A stretch of DNA of 64,000 bases from a virus (Duplodnaviria > Caudoviricetes): positions 64,001-128,000 of the IMG/VR virus record IMGVR_UViG_3300011774_000001; one strand, 5' to 3'. Position numbers and translations under genes: made by a program. The notes beneath the pieces are model-generated. The model had not been told where the DNA came from, made no database searches, and worked only from the letters and a program-made list of their open reading frames with translations. Shown here piece by piece: positions 43,788 to 57,058 of this stretch. Position 1 is the first letter of the stretch. Every line of letters starts with the position of its first letter.

Positions 43788-44234
43788 ATGACTGTATCTG
43801 TCACTTACCAAAGCGTCTTTGATTCCCCAGCCCAGGCGCTGGTGGTTACGGTAAACTGTGTCGGCATCATGGGTAAGGGCGTAGCTGAAGTTTGTAAGCG
43901 CAAATACCCGCAAGTGTTCATCGACTATGTTCGCCGTTGCCGAAGTGGCAAGATCACTGTTGGTCGGATAAGTAATGAAGATTGCTACCAGCTGGCTGAT
44001 GGGCGGTACATCATCCTGTTCCCCACCAAAAACCACTGGAGACGAGACAGTCAAGTTTGTTGGATTGAAACAGGGTTAGCCGACCTTCTCGGTCACTGCC
44101 ACCGTCTGAGCTTAGATGACGTGGCCTTACCTCCCCCAGGCTGCGGTAATGGTGGCTTGGAATTAAGCGACGTTAAGCCTCTAATCGACCTCATGTTCGA
44201 GGAAGAGGGTGTTGAGGTTACCTTATGTATATAG
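43788..44234 (+). CDS. Macrodomain ADP-ribosyl glycohydrolase (DarG/TARG1/Poa1p-like)
   Basis: VNCVGIMGKGVA, FPTK.HWR..S, ALPPPGCGNGGL. Confidence 0.85.
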   Translation: MTVSVTYQSVFDSPAQALVVTVNCVGIMGKGVAEVCKRKYPQVFIDYVRRCRSGKITVGRISNEDCYQLADGRYIILFPTKNHWRRDSQVCWIETGLADLLGHCHRLSLDDVALPPPGCGNGGLELSDVKPLIDLMFEEEGVEVTLCI

Positions 44235-44552: not shown

Positions 44553-45071
44553 ATGAAAATCAATGTGGCCAAAACGGCACAGGAAAACTTGATCGACCTG
44601 ATCATCGACGCCAACCCTGGTAAGTCGTTGACCGCCGCTCAGTTCACTGCTGCCAACCCTGTCGTTATCCCAGACGACGCCGGTCGCAACACCACCATCG
44701 TTCTGTCCGCTGTTGTGGGTCAGGGCTACGGTGCTGGCGACGTTACTTTCAAATACACCCGTCTGGGTCTGGCTGGCGTTAACGTCACCCCAGTTACCAG
44801 CGTGCGCGTTGCTGAAGGCGATGACCAGGCTGCCTCGCTGGCCAAGGTGCTGGCTGCCGTTGGCATCCTGGGTAGCGAAGTTGATGCGTCTGACTACGCT
44901 GCACCGACTGACGACACCGTTCCAGGCATGATCACCCTGACCCCGAAGGCCAACTCCGCGTTGTACGTCGGCGAAGAAGTGGTCATCGAACTGACCTGGG
45001 CGCCTGAAGTAGAGCCTACCCTGGCTGACACCTTCACCACCACCGATCTGGACGGCTTCGAGCCTGCCTAA
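44553..45071 (+). CDS. Virion fibre-family paralog (domain A + C-terminal tail)
   Basis: GRNT...Y.G.....Y.RL.L motif; ends PTLADTFTTTDLDGFEPA. Confidence 0.7.
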   Translation: MKINVAKTAQENLIDLIIDANPGKSLTAAQFTAANPVVIPDDAGRNTTIVLSAVVGQGYGAGDVTFKYTRLGLAGVNVTPVTSVRVAEGDDQAASLAKVLAAVGILGSEVDASDYAAPTDDTVPGMITLTPKANSALYVGEEVVIELTWAPEVEPTLADTFTTTDLDGFEPA

Positions 45072-45081
45072 GTCGTAATGG

Positions 45082-45124
45082 CGACATACGCCCCCTGCCC
45101 TTTGCGGGGCAGGGGGTTTATGCT
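45082..45124. terminator. Bidirectional hairpin + TTATGC
   Basis: GACATAC-GCCCCCTGCCC-TTTGCG-GGGCAGGGGGT-TTATGC. Confidence 0.65.
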
Positions 45125-45813
45125 CATGCTGGTTCAAACCCGTTAAGGCTTTTGTTCTCAAACACTTCGGCCAATGTAGGCTCAGCACCCATGGTTGCAA
45201 TGCTGCCCGGTACAAAGAAGTAGCTCTCTGCACCCGCTACCAAATAGATGGAGTTGGCAGTAACCCGGCATTTGGTCAGGTCAAAGTCAGCATCGACCAC
45301 CAGAATACCCTTGGCACGAATGGCTGCAATCACTGCAGTCATGTTGGGTAGCGAACTACCCGGTACCAACTTCATGGCCGCCAATACGTTCATGTAGCGA
45401 CGTTCGTAGATTACCGTCACTGGAACGCGGTACGCACTGGTTTCTGAAGGCGACAGCAGAACATTGGTTCGTGCAGGACCAACGCTCAGATCCGCAACAG
45501 GCTTACCAATGATCAGTGTGTTCCAGTCGGGCACTACGGTCATCTTGCGGGTCACCATGACCTTGAAGTTGTCCAGCCCCGTGATGTCGTAAGGCAGTGT
45601 AACAAAGCCTTCCTGCACCTGAGCGACCAACACCCGAGCACTGGCAGTACGGATCACTGGGGCAGATTTCTGGGCCACCAGTGTCCGCACGCTGGCTACC
45701 CTGGCCGCGGGATGGGGTTTCTCAATCACAATGCCCTGTACAGAGAACAAGTCTGTGGAGACCCTCTCCTGTTCAACGACCAGACCTTGCAGTGTAAACA
45801 GATCAGTATCCAT
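45124..45813 (-). CDS. Fibre-family adaptor with four N-terminal beta-strand repeats
   Basis: TDLFTLQGLVVE/TDLFSVQGIVIE and ARVASVRTLVAQ/IRTASARVLVAQ, then domain A; ends LNGFEPA. Confidence 0.7.
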   Translation of the reverse strand: MDTDLFTLQGLVVEQERVSTDLFSVQGIVIEKPHPAARVASVRTLVAQKSAPVIRTASARVLVAQVQEGFVTLPYDITGLDNFKVMVTRKMTVVPDWNTLIIGKPVADLSVGPARTNVLLSPSETSAYRVPVTVIYERRYMNVLAAMKLVPGSSLPNMTAVIAAIRAKGILVVDADFDLTKCRVTANSIYLVAGAESYFFVPGSIATMGAEPTLAEVFENKSLNGFEPA

Positions 45814-45823
45814 GGAATTCCCC

Positions 45824-46879
45824 TTAACGTGCTACTACGGTAAGGGAAACCTCTAGCCCGTTAAGGGCAGTGGCTGGGACAGATTCAGCGCTGTTGCGAG
45901 AACCGTTGATCAGTCGAACTGCAGGACCTGTCAGGGCCACCGCCGAGTTGGGGGACAGGGTAACACTGTCGTTGTGAGTGCCGCGAGTAATCTTGGCAAC
46001 AACGTCCGAAGGACTGCCCTGGGCATAGGCACAACGACTTTGCACCATGACACCACTGACGTTAGCCACGTTTGGCAAGACGTACCCATCCACTGGTTTC
46101 AGTTTAAGCACTGGATTGACGCCGTTACCCAGGATGTACTTACCTGTGTCCGTCGCAAAGTCACGCCATGCCTGAACATTGGCCAGGTTAGTCATGTCCC
46201 AATCCGTGCTGGACACGACCTGCATTGGAATGTCGGTGATGTCCTGAGGACCCAGACGACCACTGGGTGTGTCATCGCCGATGTCTGCGGTAACGTAGAT
46301 GTCGGTCATCCAGATACCTTCGGTACCACTGATCGGGAAACCCAATGCCCAGGTATTGGCACCGAACTCGGCCTTATCGGTCGTGTCAGTAACTGTGTTG
46401 ATCCACTGGAAGCGGCCATCGATGTACGCGGATATCGTGCGGTCAGTGCGGTTGAATACCAGCTCCAAATACCACTCCGTCACGTTGGCCGGAATGTTCT
46501 GCATCCAGTATGCCCCGCGCAGGGTTTTGAAGACAGGGAAGTTCAGGGGGGTGGTAGGTGTGCCAAGCTTACGCTTGAGACGCAGACCGATCGTGAACAC
46601 GTTAGCAGAGGCGGGTACCAGGCTACCGATGTTCATGACGTACTGGTTGAAAACGTTGACAATACCGTAACCAGTATAACCACCCAACCAATATTTGTTC
46701 CCCACCTTCTCTACACCGAGACCCCATGGCTGACCACCCGAGCCCCAGTTGGCACCGGCGTTGACCAGAGGAATTGCACCAGGCAACCCTAGGGCACCAG
46801 CCCCCGCTGCAGTGGCGATGGCAGACAGTTCAATGCCTGTCTGTACGCCAGCAAAGTTTTCAAGTTGTGTAATGGCCAT
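45824..46879 (-). CDS. Putative receptor-binding protein, ConA/LamG-like lectin fold
   Basis: WYLELVFNR....AYIDG and DIYV....RLGP motifs shared by three paralogs. Confidence 0.65.
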   Translation of the reverse strand: MAITQLENFAGVQTGIELSAIATAAGAGALGLPGAIPLVNAGANWGSGGQPWGLGVEKVGNKYWLGGYTGYGIVNVFNQYVMNIGSLVPASANVFTIGLRLKRKLGTPTTPLNFPVFKTLRGAYWMQNIPANVTEWYLELVFNRTDRTISAYIDGRFQWINTVTDTTDKAEFGANTWALGFPISGTEGIWMTDIYVTADIGDDTPSGRLGPQDITDIPMQVVSSTDWDMTNLANVQAWRDFATDTGKYILGNGVNPVLKLKPVDGYVLPNVANVSGVMVQSRCAYAQGSPSDVVAKITRGTHNDSVTLSPNSAVALTGPAVRLINGSRNSAESVPATALNGLEVSLTVVAR

Positions 46880-47961
46880 TATGCAGGGTCCTTCAGAGTA
46901 ATGCTGAAGTCAACCGAGGCCAGAGGCACGTTGGCCGCTACAAACTCGGCACGAGGGCGTGTCCAGTTGACCACGTCAGCAGTCGTGGTGGTAAAGTTGA
47001 TCGCACTGGCGTTGGTGTACTTGGTTCCATCCACGGTCTGCGAGATATCGACCTGTGGTATGACTGCGGCACTACGCCGGCCACCCACCAGAACACCTGC
47101 AGCCAACACCTTACCTGGAATTGCGGAGAGGTCCAGTTTGAAATTGACAGCGCTGTTAGCGTCCGTCAGTTTCACAGTGCCGGCAGCCTTGGACCAAGCA
47201 CCACCCGAGGCCGTGTTAACCAGCGGTTGGTTGAGGATGGTTTGGGCAGTGGCAGCATCCTTGTTGGCACCCACTACGCCGGTGACTGTCACCGGGGCAC
47301 GTTTGATGTTCACAGGACCCAAGCGTTTAGTGACGCCAATGCCGTCATCCACCACGATGTAAATGTCGCGAACCTTGAACTGGTCGGGGCTGACTTTTGC
47401 CGCACCGTTGTTGGTCCATGCGGTTGCGTTCTTGAACGGAACACCTAAGGTAAGTTCGCGACCGTTGTTGATGTCCGAATACAGTTGAGGGAACGACGTC
47501 AGGGCTGATTCACTAATAAGTGCACCGTCCTTGTAGACACGGAATTTATTGCCGGTGAAGTCGATCTCAATTTCCAAGAACGCTTCTGGTGTACCGGTGC
47601 CCCCCACAAACCCGAGAGCAGCGCCGTTACTCAATAGCAGGTCATTGACTGGCTGGCCGGTGGCCGCTAGTCTGAACAGCGCGTAACCGGCGTTGTTGAC
47701 GTTGCGATAACGAGCGCCGAACCAGTAGACCTTGGTTTTGTCGAGCGTCAGCGGTAGAAGGTATTGGCCGCGGTATTCACCAACACCGTTACCCTCGACC
47801 GCACACATCCAACCCGCTTCATCAATGCAGGGGTTCTGCACCCAACTGGTCGAGCTGTAATAGACACCGACGTCACTCATCGGGACAAGGCCAAAGCTTT
47901 TCAGGCTGGCCCCTCCGATAGAACGTAGGTTGTCGAAACAATAAGCAGCTAAGAGACTCAT
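46879..47961 (-). CDS. Putative receptor-binding protein, ConA/LamG-like lectin fold
   Basis: FLEIEIDF....RVYKDG; DIYI....RLGP. Confidence 0.65.
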   Translation of the reverse strand: MSLLAAYCFDNLRSIGGASLKSFGLVPMSDVGVYYSSTSWVQNPCIDEAGWMCAVEGNGVGEYRGQYLLPLTLDKTKVYWFGARYRNVNNAGYALFRLAATGQPVNDLLLSNGAALGFVGGTGTPEAFLEIEIDFTGNKFRVYKDGALISESALTSFPQLYSDINNGRELTLGVPFKNATAWTNNGAAKVSPDQFKVRDIYIVVDDGIGVTKRLGPVNIKRAPVTVTGVVGANKDAATAQTILNQPLVNTASGGAWSKAAGTVKLTDANSAVNFKLDLSAIPGKVLAAGVLVGGRRSAAVIPQVDISQTVDGTKYTNASAINFTTTTADVVNWTRPRAEFVAANVPLASVDFSITLKDPA

Positions 47962-47970
47962 GGTACCTCC

Positions 47971-49062
47971 TTACACGGAACCAAGACTGAGAGAGGTAAA
48001 GACCGTCGCCAAAGCAGGCTTACGACCTACTGTGAGCGTGTATGTGCCCTTAAAGAGCGGAGAGCTGGCCTTTGCCTGCAGCGTCAGTGTAAACGTCGTC
48101 AGGCTGTCCTGAGCGACCACAGGGAGATCTTCCACATCGTAGATGGTGAAGGGGATGCCTGTGATGGCTTGGATGGTTGGCAAGATGTGATGGATCGTTG
48201 TATCCTCCAAGACCTTGGTGGTCGTGGGGAATGTGAAGGCCGACATCCCTGCCAGATCCAGACGATTGTAGAACACCTTGTGCGACTGGGTACTCTGGCC
48301 GTCAGCGCTTGGGTAGGACACGTCCCGCTGGATCTCGCGGATACTGGAAGGTCCTGGGTTGAGCGATGCAGTATTGGCGAAGGTCACACCCGCTGCTGCC
48401 ACAGTCCGACCCAGTACGGTATTCAGCTGTGCAACAAAGGCCGCTTTGGCAAAGTACGCTGGCAACGCCGCCAAGGTGGCTGGCCAAGCCAGTCCTGCAA
48501 ACTCCCAGTCACGATCGGACGGACACATCCAACCCACGTTGATCTGGGTACCCGGTTGGAAGTACATCGAGTTGGCAGAGGCTTCCAGTGTGCAAGGACC
48601 ATCTTGGGGGATGGGTGCAGACTTGAAGTCAGAGGGGGTTAGTGCTGTGCCGAAGGTGGTGTTGAAACGTGTCACCACCTGATCGGTTGTGGTCATGACC
48701 TTGTCGTACTTGAGGATGTCGAGATCCCGATTCACGACAATCTCTTTTGCAGGGAACCGGTAGTACGCAAAATCCATGTTACCACGGTAACCAGAACTTG
48801 GTTTGAACACCACATTCAGCTTGGTGTTGAAACGGTCCTTGACCTCAGCCACAGGTACACCCAGCGTCAGATCGGCGGCAACGAAACCTTTTTGATGGGT
48901 CACGTTGATCGAGTCAATGATGTGCTGGGTAACCTCGACCTTGAACGGGTCTGTGGGGAGGGTGGACAAAACAGCGTAGGCCGCGACCTGATCCACCCGC
49001 AACACATCCGGCTGCTTAAGGATCGCGTAGGCCGCGACCTGATCAACTTTTACAGTTGCCAT
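47971..49062 (-). CDS. Fibre-family adaptor with two N-terminal VDQVAAYA repeats and tandem A domains
   Basis: VKVDQVAAYAIL/LRVDQVAAYAVL; FNT..YRG..F.YYR and FYNRLDL. Confidence 0.7.
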   Translation of the reverse strand: MATVKVDQVAAYAILKQPDVLRVDQVAAYAVLSTLPTDPFKVEVTQHIIDSINVTHQKGFVAADLTLGVPVAEVKDRFNTKLNVVFKPSSGYRGNMDFAYYRFPAKEIVVNRDLDILKYDKVMTTTDQVVTRFNTTFGTALTPSDFKSAPIPQDGPCTLEASANSMYFQPGTQINVGWMCPSDRDWEFAGLAWPATLAALPAYFAKAAFVAQLNTVLGRTVAAAGVTFANTASLNPGPSSIREIQRDVSYPSADGQSTQSHKVFYNRLDLAGMSAFTFPTTTKVLEDTTIHHILPTIQAITGIPFTIYDVEDLPVVAQDSLTTFTLTLQAKASSPLFKGTYTLTVGRKPALATVFTSLSLGSV

Positions 49063-49073
49063 CGACGTTCACC

Positions 49074-50210
49074 TTAAGAAGTGGCTGCCAACTTGACGGA
49101 GTATTTGTCAAGCTCTGTTTTGGCAGGTGTGGCGGCAATCGACTTGAACGCCATGCGGCGAGCAAAGCCCGTGGTCAACAGATTGCTACGGGTAAGGTCG
49201 AAGGTTTGCTGGAAAGAGGCGGTCAGGTTCTGTTCCGACGCACCACTCTTGAGCAGGTCCCCACGCAGGTTTGAAGTACCACTCGAACCCAACGCATCTA
49301 CCTGCACCATGATCGCCTTGACGCTGTCCTGATCACTGATACCAGTGGTGTCGAAAGTCACCAGACCATTGGCATCAGTGTCGGTCACGTTGACGGTGGT
49401 TGGGGCTGCGTCTGGGGTACCGAAAGCCAGGTGCGTGTCGTTGAACGATTCGACAATGGTCTTGCCCGCAGTGTTGGGTGTCCAGGTGGGGGCGTTGACC
49501 GCCTTGACTGGCATGTTTTTGAGAACAACAGGGCCGACCTTCTTGACCATGTCGTTGGCCGCGATCTCGGACAGGATAATGTCCTTGAAAGCGTCTTCAC
49601 GATACTGCTCGGCATAACCACCGGCCTGGTTGGTACGCACACCAATCCAGAAGGCCACCAACGAGGCACCCGCCGTAAGCCTTGAGGAAACAGACATGGT
49701 CTTGAGATAAACGTTGTCGCGATAGACGATGACCTCGCCGGTGTCGCGATCCACGGTGATCTCGAAGTAATGACTGTTTCCTACCACGCTAGGAGCTGCC
49801 CAGTCTGTTCCCAACACGATCGACAGGGGCTGCAGGGAGTCAGAAAGACGAAGGCCCGCACTGGCCACCAGACTGGTAGATCCAACGCTACCGTTGAATG
49901 TCACACGGAACCCGAAGGACAACATGGTCTTGGTGGCCTGAATGCCGACTTCGGCATTCTCCAGAAGCGCCTCTACGGTCGCGGTGTATAAACCACCGGA
50001 GTAGTTGGACAGGTTTCGAGCGCGGACAACCAATGCATCTGGGTCGTTACCCTTACGAACACCAAAGGTAGATCCCGTTGGAGCGTAGGCGTAGGGGTCG
50101 GTGTAACCAACGGTCATCCGACTACCCACTACCTGACCCACATAGGGAGTGTTGGTGTTGAAGATGTTGGTGGGCGCTTTGGCAAACCCGTAGGAATCAA
50201 TGATGCGCAT
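49074..50210 (-). CDS. Putative receptor-binding protein, ConA/LamG-like lectin fold
   Basis: YFEITVDR....IVYRDN; DIIL....KVGP. Confidence 0.65.
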   Translation of the reverse strand: MRIIDSYGFAKAPTNIFNTNTPYVGQVVGSRMTVGYTDPYAYAPTGSTFGVRKGNDPDALVVRARNLSNYSGGLYTATVEALLENAEVGIQATKTMLSFGFRVTFNGSVGSTSLVASAGLRLSDSLQPLSIVLGTDWAAPSVVGNSHYFEITVDRDTGEVIVYRDNVYLKTMSVSSRLTAGASLVAFWIGVRTNQAGGYAEQYREDAFKDIILSEIAANDMVKKVGPVVLKNMPVKAVNAPTWTPNTAGKTIVESFNDTHLAFGTPDAAPTTVNVTDTDANGLVTFDTTGISDQDSVKAIMVQVDALGSSGTSNLRGDLLKSGASEQNLTASFQQTFDLTRSNLLTTGFARRMAFKSIAATPAKTELDKYSVKLAATS

Positions 50211-50225
50211 GCTGAACTCCTAGGC

Positions 50226-50549
50226 TTAGTTGCCGTAGTGCATGTACAGGCGGCGGCTGTCCCGACCTTCCAGATCCTGGAGGCGAATACCTACCACGCG
50301 CTTGAACAAGGGGTTGGTGGGCAGCATCGTGTCGTTGTCACCGGTGTAGATGACTTCGGCATTCTGCAGAGAGGTCAGACCATCGCCAGCCGGCACCCAC
50401 TGACCTTGGGAATCAGTCGGGTCGTACTCGCCCAATGCGGCAGAGAGGGTCATGATTTGTTCGTCCGAGAGTGGACCTACTTCCAGCTCATCCAAGAAGT
50501 CCTTGAACGGGGAGAAGTCAACGCGGAAGAAGTTGGGCAAAATTTGCAT
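50226..50549 (-). CDS. Stand-alone fibre-family domain B
   Basis: DFS..., SL.NA.VIY.G.N, TN..FKRV, LYMHYGN. Confidence 0.65.
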   Translation of the reverse strand: MQILPNFFRVDFSPFKDFLDELEVGPLSDEQIMTLSAALGEYDPTDSQGQWVPAGDGLTSLQNAEVIYTGDNDTMLPTNPLFKRVVGIRLQDLEGRDSRRLYMHYGN

Positions 50550-50551
50550 GG

Positions 50552-51049
50552 TTAACTCCAGTCGAAATAAGAGCTGGTGATGGCTGCCGAGATTGGTGGA
50601 AGACCACCACTATTGAGCGTACAGCTACCTTTCCAGAAGATGCCCGTGGCTTTTGCAGTCAGGGGGATCTTGAACGTTCCGTCACCGTTGTCGACCAGTG
50701 CTGCATCTTCGACGTCATTGGCGTCCAGAAGAACGCCCCACGTTTTGAGGATGTAGGGGAAGCAGTCGTAAACACGAGTAGCTCCAGTCAGCACGGTGGT
50801 GGGTGCGGGGGCTGCACTGTTGCCCAGATGCGCCAGATCAACGCGGGTGTACTTGAACGAACGGTAGTCCTTGTACGTGGGGTTGGTCCCCTGCGCGGTG
50901 AGTTTGATTTTGGTATCAAACCCTTCTGGATCATTCACCAAGGCACTGGGGGTAGAGAACACCCAGAGGTCGGGCGACGAATACGTCAGAGAGTGGATGG
51001 CCTGCAACTGAATGAGCAGGCTGATCTTGGAACCTTGTTTCAAGTCCAT
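50552..51049 (-). CDS. Stand-alone fibre-family domain A
   Basis: FDTKIKL...Y....F.Y.RVDL; W.G. Confidence 0.65.
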   Translation of the reverse strand: MDLKQGSKISLLIQLQAIHSLTYSSPDLWVFSTPSALVNDPEGFDTKIKLTAQGTNPTYKDYRSFKYTRVDLAHLGNSAAPAPTTVLTGATRVYDCFPYILKTWGVLLDANDVEDAALVDNGDGTFKIPLTAKATGIFWKGSCTLNSGGLPPISAAITSSYFDWS

Positions 51050-51056
51050 GGTTCAC

Positions 51057-51950
51057 CTACACCTTGTAATGAAGCAGGAATTTACCCACGAACCAACCAC
51101 CTGCAGCAGGCGGCGTAATCACCACCACGTTGTTGTAGTCTGTGGAGTTTGCCTCAGGCACGTTGACGTTGGGTAGGGCATACTTGATGCAGCGAGCATC
51201 TTGCATACCGAACTTCGTGGCAGCATCAACATAAGCGTTGAGCTTGCGGCCCGAGACCAGACTCATGTACCCAACCAAGTCCTTGGCCATAGCAGTCGCC
51301 GGCAAGACACGTAGAGTGGTCAGAGTCTGCAGCAGTGCACTGAACTTGGAGAAGTCAGCCCCGTAGGTCATGAAGTCTGCCAAGTTATCTGGATTGCCAC
51401 CTGGAGCCACACCGCTGACCAATGTCAACAGAGCTGGGGTGGTGGCAGGAACCTGTTCACTGACTGGTTTCTTGGTGGCCTTGCGGTTCCATCGGAACGA
51501 CCCAATCCAAGCCGGGTTGGTGGCTGGGAAGCCCCAGATGTACGCAGTGCCCAATGCAGCGGTGACTACAGCGCGGTCAGCATCGCTGGCAATGAAGTTG
51601 GTGCCGTACTTCTGGTTGATCCAGCGCATGGCTGATTCTACCTTGATGGCAGCGCCGTTCATGTCTGATGGTGTGGCGTAATCGTCAATTATTGGCACGC
51701 CTTGTTGGAACAAGACGTCCGAAGACATGCGACGATAGGTGAGCACCGTGGTGGCCATGTAGCCAGAACCAGCCTTTGGCATCACAGAGATCTGTGTGTT
51801 GCGAATCCCCTGACCAGTGATCGCTGCCGGAACACCCAAACGACAGTTATCTGGCGTGAGTTTGTACGGCAGCTGAGGATTGTCCCGATTGATCAAGTCA
51901 AAGACCAATTCGGCAGATGTTTTTCGATAGTCTAAGTCCATCTTCTTCAT
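51057..51950 (-). CDS. Fibre-family paralog (A+B)
   Basis: RNT...Y.....YRR; ends GKFLLHYKV. Confidence 0.7.
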   Translation of the reverse strand: MKKMDLDYRKTSAELVFDLINRDNPQLPYKLTPDNCRLGVPAAITGQGIRNTQISVMPKAGSGYMATTVLTYRRMSSDVLFQQGVPIIDDYATPSDMNGAAIKVESAMRWINQKYGTNFIASDADRAVVTAALGTAYIWGFPATNPAWIGSFRWNRKATKKPVSEQVPATTPALLTLVSGVAPGGNPDNLADFMTYGADFSKFSALLQTLTTLRVLPATAMAKDLVGYMSLVSGRKLNAYVDAATKFGMQDARCIKYALPNVNVPEANSTDYNNVVVITPPAAGGWFVGKFLLHYKV

Positions 51951-51991
51951 CCCAGTTGGAAGGGGCCGGGGAATACCCGGCCACTATGCCG

Positions 51992-52876
51992 TCAGTCCGC
52001 CGAGTTCGGGTTATCCGGGTCGTTGAAGTGCAGGTAGAAACGGCCGGTTGGTGTGGTTACACCAGCACGCAGTTCCAAACACATCACGTACTTGTACGAC
52101 TGGTTGGTGGGAAAGACCATGGAGTTCAGACCACAGAAGATCACATTGGCGCCGTTGAGCGACCAGGTGTTGCTGCTGTCGGAGTTATTCCACAGCGCAG
52201 CGCCTGGACCCTGATCGAGTGCCTTGAGTGCTGTCACCAAAATGTCGGCGTTAGCAGAAGACAGTACGCCTTCAGCCATGGCCAGCAATTGATCCCGGTA
52301 GCCTGTTAGGTTGAGCGGGTAGGTGTACAGCAGTGCCGAGGTCTGGGTCGCCGGGTCGGCCACTGGATAGTTCAAACCATTCAACGCCTTGACCGTGGTC
52401 AGGGTGTCGATGTTTGCACCACCTTGAACAACGTCAAAGGACAATTGACCCAGCCACAGTGGCGAGGTGTCCTTGGCTTTGATAGTCACCGTACCAGCAC
52501 CCTGCGCATCCAACACCACAGGCTCACTGAGAATATCCTGCGGACCCAGCACAAGGCCGAAGTAGTACAGGATGTTCGACAGCAGGTCGAGGGTGGTTGC
52601 AGGCTGGTATACCGGCAATGGGCGGGTAGGGCGGAACTTGGCGAAGTCTGCCAAAGTAAGACGATCGTACTTGACGGTCGTCTTACCTTCAAACCCAGCA
52701 CCCTGCTTAGGAGTTACCTTGGCGTAGGTGTTCTTGGTGGTGGTACCTTCCATCCACGTCCCTGCGATCGGTTTGGGATCTGACCAGGCGAGGTTGGTTG
52801 CAGTGAACTGCGTGGTACTGTTGGCCGCATTCAAATAGTTGAAGAGGGCCTGCTTGGAATCTACGAAAACAGACAT
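51992..52876 (-). CDS. Fibre-family paralog (A+B)
   Basis: KNT..G....YDRL; LNGLNYP; GRFYLHFN. Confidence 0.7.
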   Translation of the reverse strand: MSVFVDSKQALFNYLNAANSTTQFTATNLAWSDPKPIAGTWMEGTTTKNTYAKVTPKQGAGFEGKTTVKYDRLTLADFAKFRPTRPLPVYQPATTLDLLSNILYYFGLVLGPQDILSEPVVLDAQGAGTVTIKAKDTSPLWLGQLSFDVVQGGANIDTLTTVKALNGLNYPVADPATQTSALLYTYPLNLTGYRDQLLAMAEGVLSSANADILVTALKALDQGPGAALWNNSDSSNTWSLNGANVIFCGLNSMVFPTNQSYKYVMCLELRAGVTTPTGRFYLHFNDPDNPNSAD

Positions 52877-52888
52877 GGCTGCCTCCTC

Positions 52889-53776
52889 TTAAAGGTTGAA
52901 GTACAGAATCCACTTGCCTGCAAGGCGTGGGTTGCTGGCGTCGGAGACCGTGAGGATCTTCGCGTAGGCGAAGCCCGGCTTGTTGGCCTCGGGGTGAGCA
53001 GCGCTCGGCAGTGCCACACCAGCGAACGTGCCGTTGGACATGTTCCAAGGCGCAGTGTCGGCGTTGTAGGTGCCGATGGCGATCGGCCAACTGGTCTGAC
53101 GCTGAATCTCGGCGATCACGCCGCCAGCACCACTGAGGTTGACACTGCCGCCAGCCGTCCAACCCTGGGCCAGAGCGTACTCGGTGAAGTCCAGCCCCGC
53201 GAACACAAACTCAGGACGCAGGCTGCGATCTGGTTTGGCCACGAAGTCGTTACCGCCTGGCCATTGACCACCGTCCAATTCAGTGACTGTCAGGATGTCG
53301 ATACCAATCTGCTGTAGACCACGGTTCCAGGTAACGGTGAAGCTACCCACATAAGCCAAGTTGTCAGCCACGGCCGACCACACACGCGGAGTAGCGTTCT
53401 GGCTGTAGCTCCAAGCAGCGCCAGAGATGCCAGACACTGTCAGGTTCACACCGTACAACTGGTTGACGTAACCGATAGCCTGAGCCATGGTCATGGTGGC
53501 ACCGTCGTTCAGCCAGCGTGTGAAGGCGATGTTGTTACCACGGAACAGACTGGTCAGGTCACGGCGACGATACAGAACTTCCAATACGCCTCGGTACTTA
53601 CTGGACGACTTGGCCGTGATTTTGAGTTTGGTGTTACGGCCGAAACTGTCAGCGGCCACAACAACCGGTTTACCGAAGATGAAATCGGTGGAATTGATGG
53701 GCCATGGCAGCGTCGGGTTATCCGCGTTGATCTGCGCGATGGCCTCTTCGAGAGGACTGCCTGTGAGAATTGGCAT
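52889..53776 (-). CDS. Fibre-family paralog (A+B)
   Basis: GRNT..YRG...YRRRDL; GKWILYFN. Confidence 0.7.
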   Translation of the reverse strand: MPILTGSPLEEAIAQINADNPTLPWPINSTDFIFGKPVVVAADSFGRNTKLKITAKSSSKYRGVLEVLYRRRDLTSLFRGNNIAFTRWLNDGATMTMAQAIGYVNQLYGVNLTVSGISGAAWSYSQNATPRVWSAVADNLAYVGSFTVTWNRGLQQIGIDILTVTELDGGQWPGGNDFVAKPDRSLRPEFVFAGLDFTEYALAQGWTAGGSVNLSGAGGVIAEIQRQTSWPIAIGTYNADTAPWNMSNGTFAGVALPSAAHPEANKPGFAYAKILTVSDASNPRLAGKWILYFNL

Positions 53777-53786
53777 GTGCTTTTAC

Positions 53787-54554
53787 CTAGGCTGGATTGT
53801 AGTGGAAGTACATGGCGCCTTGTAGGAGGCCGCTCTGCACAGTCGACTGAATAACGACACGTTGGAACGCAGGGTTGGCATCTGGTACTTCTGCCGTTGC
53901 CTTGTCCACAACCTTGCCTTTAACCCAGTCAGGGATACCCATGGCACGAGCCACTGTTTGAACGAGCGCCCAATCGGAATACTCGCCTTTGGCAGTTGGT
54001 TTCAATGCGTCTTGGATACCAGAGAAGTCCGCACCCCAGGTCCACATCCGGCTCGATTGTCGGTTGGTGGCGTTAGGGTGTTTGAAGATGTCCAGATCGG
54101 TCGTACCAATCATCGAGTCCAGCCACGAAGGACCGAACGACAGATTAAGGTCCAGACCACCGAACCACTGCAGCGAGGTCTCTGCAATCTCGATACGCGA
54201 AGAGATCGCCTCACCATCACCCAGCACAGGTGGGGTGTACTCTTCGAAGTCTTCGGGGTTGATGTCTAGGCCAAACTTGTTAGACAGGCCCAGCACAATC
54301 ATTTCACGGGTCATGGTTTCCAGAGAACGGAAATCAAAAGACGTCACGTAATCTGCCAGATCCATGCGGTCATAGTAGACATCGACTTCACCGTAGTAGC
54401 CACGCCCCGGAATACCAGAGATGGTCACCAACGTGTTACGGTCGTGCTCTGTGGTCGGCTGGGGTACCGAGAACGAGAGCCGCTTTTCCGTGAACTCCTT
54501 GGGTGGAGTGAACATGTCGTTTAGAACGACAAACATCCGTTCGGCGTTAGCCAT
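53787..54554 (-). CDS. Fibre-family paralog (A+B)
   Basis: RNT..YYG...YYDRMDL; GAMYFHYN. Confidence 0.7.
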   Translation of the reverse strand: MANAERMFVVLNDMFTPPKEFTEKRLSFSVPQPTTEHDRNTLVTISGIPGRGYYGEVDVYYDRMDLADYVTSFDFRSLETMTREMIVLGLSNKFGLDINPEDFEEYTPPVLGDGEAISSRIEIAETSLQWFGGLDLNLSFGPSWLDSMIGTTDLDIFKHPNATNRQSSRMWTWGADFSGIQDALKPTAKGEYSDWALVQTVARAMGIPDWVKGKVVDKATAEVPDANPAFQRVVIQSTVQSGLLQGAMYFHYNPA

Positions 54555-54564
54555 GGTTCACCCC

Positions 54565-55407
54565 CTATGCCAGGTCTGGATCGGGTTCATTAAAGTGAAG
54601 CGTCAGCTCACCTGTCATGCCCAAGCAGTTGGCATCCACCAACACGACTTTAATGAAGCGATCGTATTTGGGATTGGCTTCCGTTGGATGGTCGGCACAG
54701 ATACCCACCATGCGGATCGTGGCACCTGCCAAACTGAAACGACTGATACCTTCGGTCTTCCAGTCATCCCCCGTCTGTGTTTTGAGCAGAGGGCCCAATA
54801 CCTCAAGAGGGGCGTCGCCCACCACAATGTCCTTGAGCTGCTCGTAGGAGGTCGTGAAGTCACGCCAGTACGAATAGATCTGGGCATACGGTCGAGTAGT
54901 AGTAGCCGCTGGATAACGCAGGCCGTTGAGACGGGTCACTTTGAGGTAATCCGCCAACTGGTAGCCACCCGGACGGGTACCCACCGAGACAGTGCCAGTC
55001 CACGCCAAGCTGGTAGGCAATGCCTCCAACTCAACCACGGCGTTGTGCACTTTCTCTTCGTCGGTCAATGCACGGATCAATACATCTTTATCCGTGAGCA
55101 GCGTACCGTAGCGTTTGTTCATGGCCGCGATGATGTCGCTGGTGCTTTGCGGCTCTTTGACCGGCACCATCAGGGTCACTTGCGCAGCCAAGTCGGACAA
55201 TGGGTTGCGATGGTAGCGGAACGTCTCGGAACCGGAGTACGCTGTCTCTTGGTTTTTGGCAGTGAGTACGATCGTCGTGTTGAACTGCCCTACCGGAGTA
55301 ATCGCGATAGGTGCTTCGAAGATGTATTCACTGGCCACCAAGTCAAGCTTGTTCAGCCGGTTGATCGATTCCACCATCACATCCAAAGAGGGTTTATAAA
55401 GCGACAT
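54565..55407 (-). CDS. Fibre-family paralog (A+B)
   Basis: FNT..YSG...YHR; LNGLRYP; GELTLHFN. Confidence 0.7.
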   Translation of the reverse strand: MSLYKPSLDVMVESINRLNKLDLVASEYIFEAPIAITPVGQFNTTIVLTAKNQETAYSGSETFRYHRNPLSDLAAQVTLMVPVKEPQSTSDIIAAMNKRYGTLLTDKDVLIRALTDEEKVHNAVVELEALPTSLAWTGTVSVGTRPGGYQLADYLKVTRLNGLRYPAATTTRPYAQIYSYWRDFTTSYEQLKDIVVGDAPLEVLGPLLKTQTGDDWKTEGISRFSLAGATIRMVGICADHPTEANPKYDRFIKVVLVDANCLGMTGELTLHFNEPDPDLA

Positions 55408-55418
55408 AATCGTGCCCT

Positions 55419-56252
55419 TTAGGAAGTGAGGTTATAGTGGAAGTAGGCGATACCCGAGTAATCCATGGTTTGCACGTTGGCAATATCCTTGATTACCTGA
55501 ACAAGCACTCGATCGTAGTCCTTGTTAGCTTCCGGTACTTGTGCCGTACTGTAGTCGTACATGGGATTGTTCCACGCCACTGGCCAGTTCGAGTAACCGA
55601 ACGAAGCCATCAGTGTCCGCATGGCGTTCCCGTCGTTAACGATGTTGTAGAACGGGTGCTTGCGAACTTTGGCGTAATGCTCCGACCAGTCTTCACTGTA
55701 AGTGAACAACGTGATCGGTCGCTTGTTCAGCGTGTCCAGCGTTTGACCCGGATGCAGCATGACATCCAGATCGCGTACGGCAACGACCTCAGACAACAGA
55801 GGGCGCCGGCGGGTAAAGCGAATAACAAACTGGCCGATGTAGGACAATGAAGTGGTCAGGGCGACGAGGGGGATGTTGACCTCTTCGTTTTCGCCCAACC
55901 AGCTGTAGTCAACCTGCTCGAAGTCGTCGACATCCAATTGGATGCCCAACTCTTGGCCGATATACGGCAACATCGAGTGCAGGTTTCCGTTACTCAGCCC
56001 ATTGATACGGGGACGGATATCACCAAACGCGCTTGTAAGGTCCATCCGCTCGTACTCAACGGGGACCATGCCTTCATAGGTCGTATCGGGAATCGGCACA
56101 ACGACACTACGGACCAGGGTAGGTAGGGGACCCTGGACAAACTTAGGCGTGGTAAAAAGCACATCGTCCGGGCTCAACGGGGAGGGAAGGACATTCTGCT
56201 GATTGATGAGATCAACTAAAACGTCCCTGCCCTTTCCAGGGACAAGGATCAT
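55419..56252 (-). CDS. Fibre-family paralog (A+B)
   Basis: Start moved to 56252 (SD CAGGAG); YEG...YERMDL; GIAYFHYN. Confidence 0.7.
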   Translation of the reverse strand: MILVPGKGRDVLVDLINQQNVLPSPLSPDDVLFTTPKFVQGPLPTLVRSVVVPIPDTTYEGMVPVEYERMDLTSAFGDIRPRINGLSNGNLHSMLPYIGQELGIQLDVDDFEQVDYSWLGENEEVNIPLVALTTSLSYIGQFVIRFTRRRPLLSEVVAVRDLDVMLHPGQTLDTLNKRPITLFTYSEDWSEHYAKVRKHPFYNIVNDGNAMRTLMASFGYSNWPVAWNNPMYDYSTAQVPEANKDYDRVLVQVIKDIANVQTMDYSGIAYFHYNLTS

Positions 56253-56348
56253 TTTTCTCTCCTGAAACCGTGATCTGAAGGGAAGGAATGTGTGCCGGAT
56301 GGGAAACATTCACATAGGATTAGCCCTTGCTGAAATAAGATAGGTAAG

Positions 56349-56381
56349 GGCATAAAAGAGAGTGGCCCGCAGGCCACTCTC
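56349..56381 (-). terminator. Hairpin + TTTTATGCC
   Basis: Minus strand GAGAGTGGCC-TGCG-GGCCACTCTC-TTTTATGCC. Confidence 0.65.
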
Positions 56382-56403
56382 CCACGAGTCCTTTCGCACC
56401 GCC

Positions 56404-56958
56404 TTACGGGCCAGCCGGAGGGGTTGGGTAGTTCAGACCGCTCAGGGTGGTCACGGTGATCACGTCGGACAATGGGATGTCTTCGGCGGTCAGGGTCACG
56501 CTCAGGGATTCCAGGAAGACGTAGGAGTCTGCGTCTGCCGGGATCTGGATGACCTTGGTTTCGTTGGGAGTACCTTCCCAATCACCGATGTCGCCGTCGA
56601 TGTAATCGTCGACGGTCAGGTTGATGCCGAGTGCAGTGTTGATCTCGTCGATCAGGTCTGCGAACTTGACAGCGTCACCTACCGGAATCTCCAACGCGCC
56701 GGTGATACCAGCGGCGGCGATGAAGCCGTCGAGGGCCAGACGGTTGTAGTTCACGCTGACTGCACCGGTGTAACCCGAGTTAGCCAGAGCAGTTACTTCC
56801 AGGGAGGTGTTGGCCACTGGATTTTCGCCAGTCGCCGCCTGTGGGACACCCAGCGCCATTACAGTGCTGGAGATGGTCTTACCGGGGTTGTCGAAGTTGA
56901 TGAGATCGAAAATGATCTCCTTCGGGGCTTTCTTGAAGTCACTGACATGGAGGGCCAT
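56404..56958 (-). CDS. Fibre-family paralog (domain A + tail), probably abundant
   Basis: ATG 56958; ANT..GYTG...YNRL.L; ends LSGLNYP; strong codon bias. Confidence 0.7.
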   Translation of the reverse strand: MALHVSDFKKAPKEIIFDLINFDNPGKTISSTVMALGVPQAATGENPVANTSLEVTALANSGYTGAVSVNYNRLALDGFIAAAGITGALEIPVGDAVKFADLIDEINTALGINLTVDDYIDGDIGDWEGTPNETKVIQIPADADSYVFLESLSVTLTAEDIPLSDVITVTTLSGLNYPTPPAGP

Positions 56959-57058
56959 GGGGACACCTTTTTGGTTGCTGCATGATGGAAAAGGACCCGT
57001 TAGTAAAGGGCCACATATCATAGTAAAGTTATAGACAACCGCCTACCCGGAGACAACA

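Follow-up and report, generated by a model that had tools for sequence, protein, structure and literature searches.

The 64,000-nucleotide stretch analysed here (the window; positions 64,001 to 128,000 of IMG/VR virus record IMGVR_UViG_3300011774_000001) contains, between positions 45,124 and 50,210, five open reading frames (ORFs) that specify three related two-domain proteins, called heads below, and two adaptors that begin with short sequence repeats. All five lie on the minus strand, where they close a minus-strand run of DUF7941 genes, and they are arranged, just as the original prediction had described, in two cassettes with heads preceding an adaptor: head A (378 amino acids (aa); 49074..50210) is followed by adaptor 1 (363 aa; 47971..49062), and heads B (360 aa; 46879..47961) and C (351 aa; 45824..46879) are followed by adaptor 2 (229 aa; 45124..45813). 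The source record, of which the window forms part, comprises 230,984 bases and carries phiKZ-type split RNA polymerase genes (phrog_3148, phrog_2986) together with 14 counted DUF7941 genes; a size above 200 kb, the phiKZ-type polymerase and the DUF7941 cluster make a phiKZ-like chimallivirus the most likely source. Because an independent contig of 230,979 bases spans the entire stretch in one unbroken piece, with 100 differences, an assembly artefact is excluded.

Both adaptors are, by profile and orthologue matches, DUF7941 (PF25613) proteins, an identity that had gone unrecognised in the original prediction. Adaptor 1 consists of a 35-residue extension followed by two DUF7941 N-terminal modules (PF25613, 90 bits in two stretches, cut-off 27), and adaptor 2 of a 70-residue extension, one such module and a C-terminal connector strand (phrog_1037, E 0.0014; our own DUF7941 profile, E 5.7e-28); the latter has no Pfam hit itself, an orthologue carries PF25613, and a connector-like C-terminal end is found in both. 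The extensions hold six 12-residue units at a strict 17-residue period, one type in two copies in adaptor 1 (starting at residues 4 and 21) and two types in two copies each in adaptor 2 (starting at 3, 20, 37 and 54), as had been described earlier. In adaptor 1 the first copy is VKVDQVAAYAIL (residues 4-15; 49018..49053) and the second (residues 21-32; 48967..49002) shares 9/12 residues with it. In adaptor 2 the type-1 unit TDLFTLQGLVVE (residues 3-14; 45772..45807) recurs with 8/12 identities at residues 20-31 (45721..45756), and the type-2 unit ARVASVRTLVAQ (residues 37-48; 45670..45705) recurs, again with 8/12 identities, at residues 54-65 (45619..45654), all of these being minus-strand features recognised as sequence repeats. 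Identity is thus 8-9/12 within a type and on average 0.9-1.8/12 between types. An atlas search with the repeat extension returned scores of 0.76 only.

For comparison, 16 loci were assembled, ten of which form one clade, that of the window; the more remote L012, L017, L018, L019 and Burkholderia phage FLC9 have repeat sequences of their own. The exact 20-nt DNA repeat noted earlier is real and forms the first part of a 23-nt near-repeat (48974-48996 and 49025-49047) with 22 identical positions. Across the relatives, however, the same codon serves identical repeat residues in only 25/59, 19/87 and 29/64 cases; because the relatives keep the residues with other codons, the repeats are kept at the protein level. 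A recombination or regulatory element was accordingly rejected as an explanation of the 20-nt match, which is, on this codon comparison, a local quirk of the window. The second copy in adaptor 1 is absent from L006, L009 and L016. Adaptor 1 itself (47971-49062) represents a fusion of genes that are separate in L006 (3097-4467), L009, L010 and L014-L016, where an adaptor of 288-318 aa is accompanied by a 164-aa DUF7941 gene; the fusion in the window has lost the adaptor's C-terminal cap domain. In adaptor 2 of L009 (11638-12378), L014 (8001-8738), L015 and L016, the C-terminal connector strand is doubled, possibly marking a branch point of a filament.

The three heads make up one family, each with a variable concanavalin A (ConA)-type front domain and a conserved back domain, referred to here as the docking domain, which begins at a conserved RLGP motif. 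Head A, which matches phrog_2448 (E 8.7e-5), has a confident AlphaFold2 (AF2) monomer model (predicted local distance difference test score, pLDDT, 88.8; predicted template modelling score, pTM, 0.90), in which the front domain occupies residues ~1-217 and the docking domain starts at residue 224 (49541-49077). Heads B and C join this family by hidden Markov model (E 1.2e-17 and 1e-14, respectively), with docking domains from residue 213 (47325-46882) and residue 208 (46258-45827). Docking domains are better conserved than front domains (37/36/43% vs 23/27/31%) and fall into three well-supported clades, A, B and C (support 0.99 for clade B and 1.0 for clade C). A sequence search for solved homologues found none. 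In a fold search, residues 1-229 of head A matched the ConA-type sandwiches of Cip1, TtX122, GH131 and PL7 lyases with Z 12-13.4, the front domain being closest to Cip1 (Z 13.4, root-mean-square deviation (rmsd) 3.4, 171 residues aligned) and TtX122A (Z 13.2).

Do the heads bind sugars, or might they cut them? The label 'lectin-like' given to them originally holds as far as the ConA-type fold of the front domain goes, that is, at the fold level only; the modelled fold cannot separate sugar binding from catalysis. That the heads are enzymes which cut polysaccharide is an alternative we regard as unlikely: PL7 lyases and GH131 are indeed among the top front-domain matches (Z 12.2-12.8), but they tie with non-catalytic modules, no conserved active-site pattern was seen in the front domain across 22 relatives, whose invariant columns number only five (M1, P13, G100, R102 and G226), and the protein varies most in its front domain. 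This alternative bears on the cargo and leaves the docking as it is proposed below. One contig of run X5 skips 633 bases across head B's front domain (47337-47971), a join fitting replacement or fast change of this domain in a near relative. In FLC9 (L011:5636-12598, gp316-gp314) the heads bear additional LamG-like domains, which are appended in gp315 and gp314 but lie inside the docking domain in gp316, and fused LamG domains occur on adaptors of L017, L018 and FLC9 too.

One regularity concerns where the extensions occur. Every DUF7941 gene lying directly after a head gene has one (26/26 across the 16 loci), with lengths of 18-23, 35-39, 65-71 or 134 residues in steps of ~17, whereas 110 of the 123 other DUF7941 genes have none; most of the 13 exceptions are start calls placed too early, and L013 is another. 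At the latter locus (L013:162-2902) the gene order is inverted, a four-repeat adaptor lying upstream of its head genes. The pairing of heads with repeats recurs in six distant lineages, namely the window clade, L012, L017, L018, L019 and FLC9. Full-length fold relatives of the heads are found, furthermore, in many small phages. In the Chi-like siphovirus Enc34, the gene after four head genes specifies a protein whose four strand-like units recur every 17 residues, and in JS26, also Chi-like, five head genes precede one for a protein with a 38-residue double unit and two alternating types (profile E-values for both phages refer to a search over 13 sequences only). The carriers in Enc34 and JS26 are not DUF7941 proteins, and because Chi-like siphoviruses thus keep the pairing without DUF7941, the repeats follow the heads and not the filament domain. 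This matters for a reading in which the head genes are mere neighbours and the repeats add strands to the DUF7941 N-terminal domains of other subunits, so as to branch the filament. DUF7941 proteins do polymerise by strand addition (PMC13742148), and the adaptors belong to them; the filament connector, however, is C-terminal and bears no resemblance to the repeats, extensions occur only beside head genes, Chi-like phages possess heads and repeats in the absence of DUF7941, and the domain that appears short of a strand is the head's own. Branching of this kind therefore seems improbable as the function of the repeats.

That a strand is missing is suggested by modelling. In the monomer model of head A, the RLGP segment stays unpaired. 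Head C and adaptor 2 share a reading frame by chance in L006, and by reading the stop as a residue both were folded as one chain, in which head C ends at residue 151 and adaptor residues 4-15 (repeat 1) become residues 160-171. This chain serves for folding alone; head and adaptor are out of frame with each other in most loci, and real read-through is not proposed. In the resulting model (pTM 0.57), repeat 1 alone became a strand (pLDDT ~60), repeats 2-4 remained unstructured (pLDDT <50), and the RLGP segment gained strand character. Galactose-binding-like jelly rolls align to residues 12-171 of the model, reaching their own C-termini (the output gives first and last aligned residues only): Fbs1 does so with Z 9.6, rmsd 3.8 and 140 residues aligned, the carbohydrate-binding module (CBM) CBM36 with 117 of its 124 residues, and CBM16 over residues 1-146 of its chain, with CBM61 and CBM86 behaving similarly. 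Since these jelly rolls are aligned over nearly their entire length, their last strand must fall on the adaptor repeat. The models would thus have the docking domain of a head be a CBM jelly roll that is one strand short and is completed by a repeat, and a gene split placed directly ahead of that strand would account as well for the regular position of head genes before repeat genes. A search for longer fused head-adaptor proteins retrieved only proteins of 338-380 aa, which is weak evidence.

The model likewise bears on the idea that the repeats fold up alone, or together with further copies of the same adaptor, as hairpins or parallel stacks, in which case the heads would attach elsewhere or not belong to the virion. 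Alternating hydrophobic residues and the mostly paired arrangement of the units would suit such folding. Adaptors with a single copy (L006, L009, L016, L012), on the other hand, offer no second copy in the chain to pair with, repeats 2-4 are left unstructured in the model, and neither the strict adjacency to heads nor the missing strand would be explained, so that we consider self-folding quite unlikely. A five-chain complex prediction, comprising two copies of the docking domain of head B, two of that of head C, and residues 1-70 of adaptor 2, gave scores of 0.67, 0.67 and 0.64, with controls at 0.00 and 0.00 when the partner was replaced and at 0.75 when chain 1 was replaced and chain 2 kept; its design is unlike the calibration and its output lists no contacts, and it is used here neither for nor against binding.

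How do the repeat types relate to the heads? The original prediction equated the number of types with that of the adjacent head genes, and for most loci this is borne out: a single head is accompanied by one type in each of the ten clade loci and in L012, L017 and L019, and a pair of heads by two paired types in nine of the clade loci and in L012 and L018. The rule fails in L010, with three heads and two types, in FLC9, whose six heads stand beside eight units of three or four types, and in JS26, and the copy number within a type is not fixed at two either, being one in L006, L009, L016 and L012. In two of these cases the docking domains offer a better guide, for the extra head of L010 belongs to clade B, where both B heads of this locus form one clade, and the six FLC9 heads form three clades. 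In L010 and FLC9 the types therefore appear, from the sequence trees, to track docking-domain clades better than gene number, a refinement made after seeing the data.

The same discrepancies can be read in another way, namely that any repeat holds any head and that the types reflect nothing but the most recent duplication. This promiscuous docking, which involves the very same docking mechanism, would accommodate three heads on two types in L010, six on three or four in FLC9 and five on two alternating types in JS26, as well as the 3-5/12 residues that different types still share in L012, L018 and FLC9. It would also fit a distance (mirror) test of repeat types vs heads B and C, which showed no clear pairing and was uninformative (partial r 0.34, 0.04, -0.08 and 0.25). 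In the window clade, by contrast, the three types are near-unrelated (0.9-1.8/12) and have stayed distinct across ten genomes, in parallel with the three clades of docking domains, and the extra L010 head falls in clade B. Moreover, repeat copies of one genome are more alike than orthologous copies (8.4 vs 6.9 for type A, 6.4 vs 4.7 for type 2) although their codons differ, as is expected when copies adapt to one partner. Promiscuity is consequently the less probable option, albeit one to be taken seriously. Loading that is specific for the type is plausible, whereas a strict code seems to us possible but somewhat doubtful.

From the genes, the repeats, their association and the folds observed here we infer that the heads bind the repeats, and we consider it probable that each repeat completes the jelly roll of one head and that the loaded adaptor is attached through its DUF7941 module to filaments at the baseplate. 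The heads would be host-surface-binding proteins without an anchor of their own, to which each 17-residue adaptor repeat would supply the missing strand in trans, one head per repeat, like beads on a rope; the repeats are usually paired, perhaps since heads bind as dimers. By analogy with published DUF7941 filaments and rope-type docking, the DUF7941 module would join head-to-tail filaments on the virion, where adaptors would display one to two, four or eight heads. Each repeat type would probably prefer one class of docking domain, and the ConA-type front, which may bind sugars, would vary with the host surface. The earlier proposal that the repeats are donor strands for a specific lectin hence gains indirect support in so far as the docking domain matches CBM jelly rolls only with the repeat as last strand and extensions occur only beside heads, but the assignment of types to heads is not given by the distance test. 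Several points weigh against this scheme. The read-through model is artificial and weak (pTM 0.57, strand pLDDT ~60), favours the nearest strand in the chain and has no control; and the fold alignments are known by their end points only. With ten of the 16 loci in one clade, the Fisher value for the link between extensions and head genes overstates their independence; head gene number departs from type number in L010, FLC9 and JS26; and the distance test, beyond assigning no type to a head, leaned to the pairing opposite to that of the read-through model.

The claim that no such docking had been described proved too strong. In the solved structures of phages Bas63 (collar and gp5), Sf14 and GP4 (rope and Fiber-1), an extended N-terminal rope runs through a series of client proteins, whiskers in Bas63 and Sf14, and fills in their incomplete sandwiches, the length of the rope setting the number of clients, with two dimers in Bas63 and five in GP4 (PMC12609058). 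The adaptors resemble these ropes in having an N-terminal extension with serial putative docking sites, in 17-residue steps, before a globular domain. The clients in Bas63, Sf14 and GP4 are, however, small, single-domain and of one kind, sitting on an immunoglobulin (Ig)-like collar; clients of rope systems measure ~110-170 aa, whereas the heads have 351-378 aa, two domains, a CBM-type jelly roll and several classes, and would sit on DUF7941 subunits. The nearest precedent for a code is Pseudomonas podophage A1002, where two different clients share one N-terminal rope: nozzle-rope gp39 holds the fibres gp40 and gp41 (16% identical) in ordered blocks of 7 and 4 dimers by beta-sheet augmentation (PMC13730344). 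Its clients are, by contrast, GP4 Fiber-1-like proteins of 147-171 aa with no separate variable lectin-fold domain, its carrier is a nozzle, and the paper describes no sequence types and does not use the word 'repeat' (PMC13730344). No whisker or Fiber-1 chain appears among the listed fold matches of the docking domain, kinship being still possible; the adaptors would thus work like a rope system, and membership in the rope/whisker family is left as an analogy.

As to the carrier, strand addition joins DUF7941 proteins into head-to-tail polymers, and a baseplate fibre cloud, comprising Goslar gp22, gp23, gp86, gp92 and gp161 and phiKZ gp126 and gp127, was proposed in 2026, the assembly being known only for Goslar gp22 (PMC13742148). 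Like these proteins, the adaptors are DUF7941 members in a paralogue cluster, and display of carbohydrate-binding domains on filaments was proposed there as well (PMC13742148). In Goslar, though, binding domains form part of the same protein, behind its N-terminal DUF7941 module, whereas here they have genes of their own and repeats stand ahead of the DUF7941 module; the Goslar paper mentions neither N-terminal repeats nor separate heads, lacks the word 'lectin' and contains 'strand' three times (PMC13742148). The two-domain head fold, the runs of four to five head genes and the N-terminal strand repeats that follow are shared with the tail-end block of Chi-like phages (Enc34 ORF33-37, JS26; phrog_2448), which differs in its non-DUF7941 carrier and the 38-residue double unit of JS26.

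In chaperone-usher pili, an N-terminal strand completes the sandwich of the next subunit, groove-strand preference sets the order, and the pilins, which are Ig folds, are chained one to the next with the help of a chaperone and an usher. The system at hand would differ in that one scaffold carries several strands and the jelly-roll clients donate none; among the listed folds, the docking domain as acceptor matches jelly rolls best, and no chaperone or usher family was detected in ten neighbouring proteins scanned. Nor was a cohesin or dockerin Pfam family, as in cellulosome scaffoldins, found in the five proteins, whose units are 17-residue peptides. Full-text searches of openly readable papers turned up nothing on this head family and its repeats, nor on docking in Chi-like phages. 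The principle of strand docking, even with two clients, is therefore already published; what appears new is the head family, the carrier and the repeat types that can be read from sequence.

The neighbouring genes complete the picture. Upstream, the run of ordinary DUF7941 filament genes (50226..57021, minus strand) is without extensions and provided context and a negative control. It includes a DUF7941 protein split over two genes (50226-51049), an N-terminal module of 165 aa and a free-standing C-terminal domain of 107 aa, a pair that is conserved in relatives and whose small gene moves in L012 and L019. Downstream lies a short convergent DUF7941 gene (44553..45071, plus strand; 172 aa; PF25613, 47 bits), again with no extension, separated from adaptor 2 by a G+C-rich hairpin (45098-45115) that is likely a terminator; promoter and terminator scans were overall at chance level. 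A macro-domain-type gene (43788-44234; phrog_335, PF01661 in relatives) is conserved beside the fibre cluster. Two more DUF7941 genes outside the window (G000:C1:11595-13381) are distant from the main cluster, with no neighbouring head gene found. Elsewhere, three adjoining genes of L017 (L017:12758-14850) share a tryptophan-rich N-terminal leader of ~40 residues ahead of different bodies, possibly a second docking tag. A tblastn search with the window proteins against phage isolates gave nothing, FLC9 alone being reached via distant relatives, and a metagenome scan gave nothing.

In chimalliviruses much of the peripheral baseplate is unmodelled, and the finding bears on how these phages find their hosts. 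Under the scheme preferred here, a large uncharacterised family (phrog_2448-like) would be named as plug-in heads with an anchor predicted to the residue, the number of heads would become readable from sequence, and the gene block that follows the tail fibre gene in Chi-like phages, so far unexplained, would acquire a possible role. More tentatively, and with slightly less than even chances in our estimation, split CBM jelly rolls may form orthogonal strand-groove pairs in which the repeat sequence programs the identity, number and order of the heads, in a module portable between DUF7941 filaments and Chi-like tail tips, so that head genes could be added or swapped while the fibre stays untouched. 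If the pairs are orthogonal, they would provide short peptide tags of natural origin, usable as a set in protein assembly.

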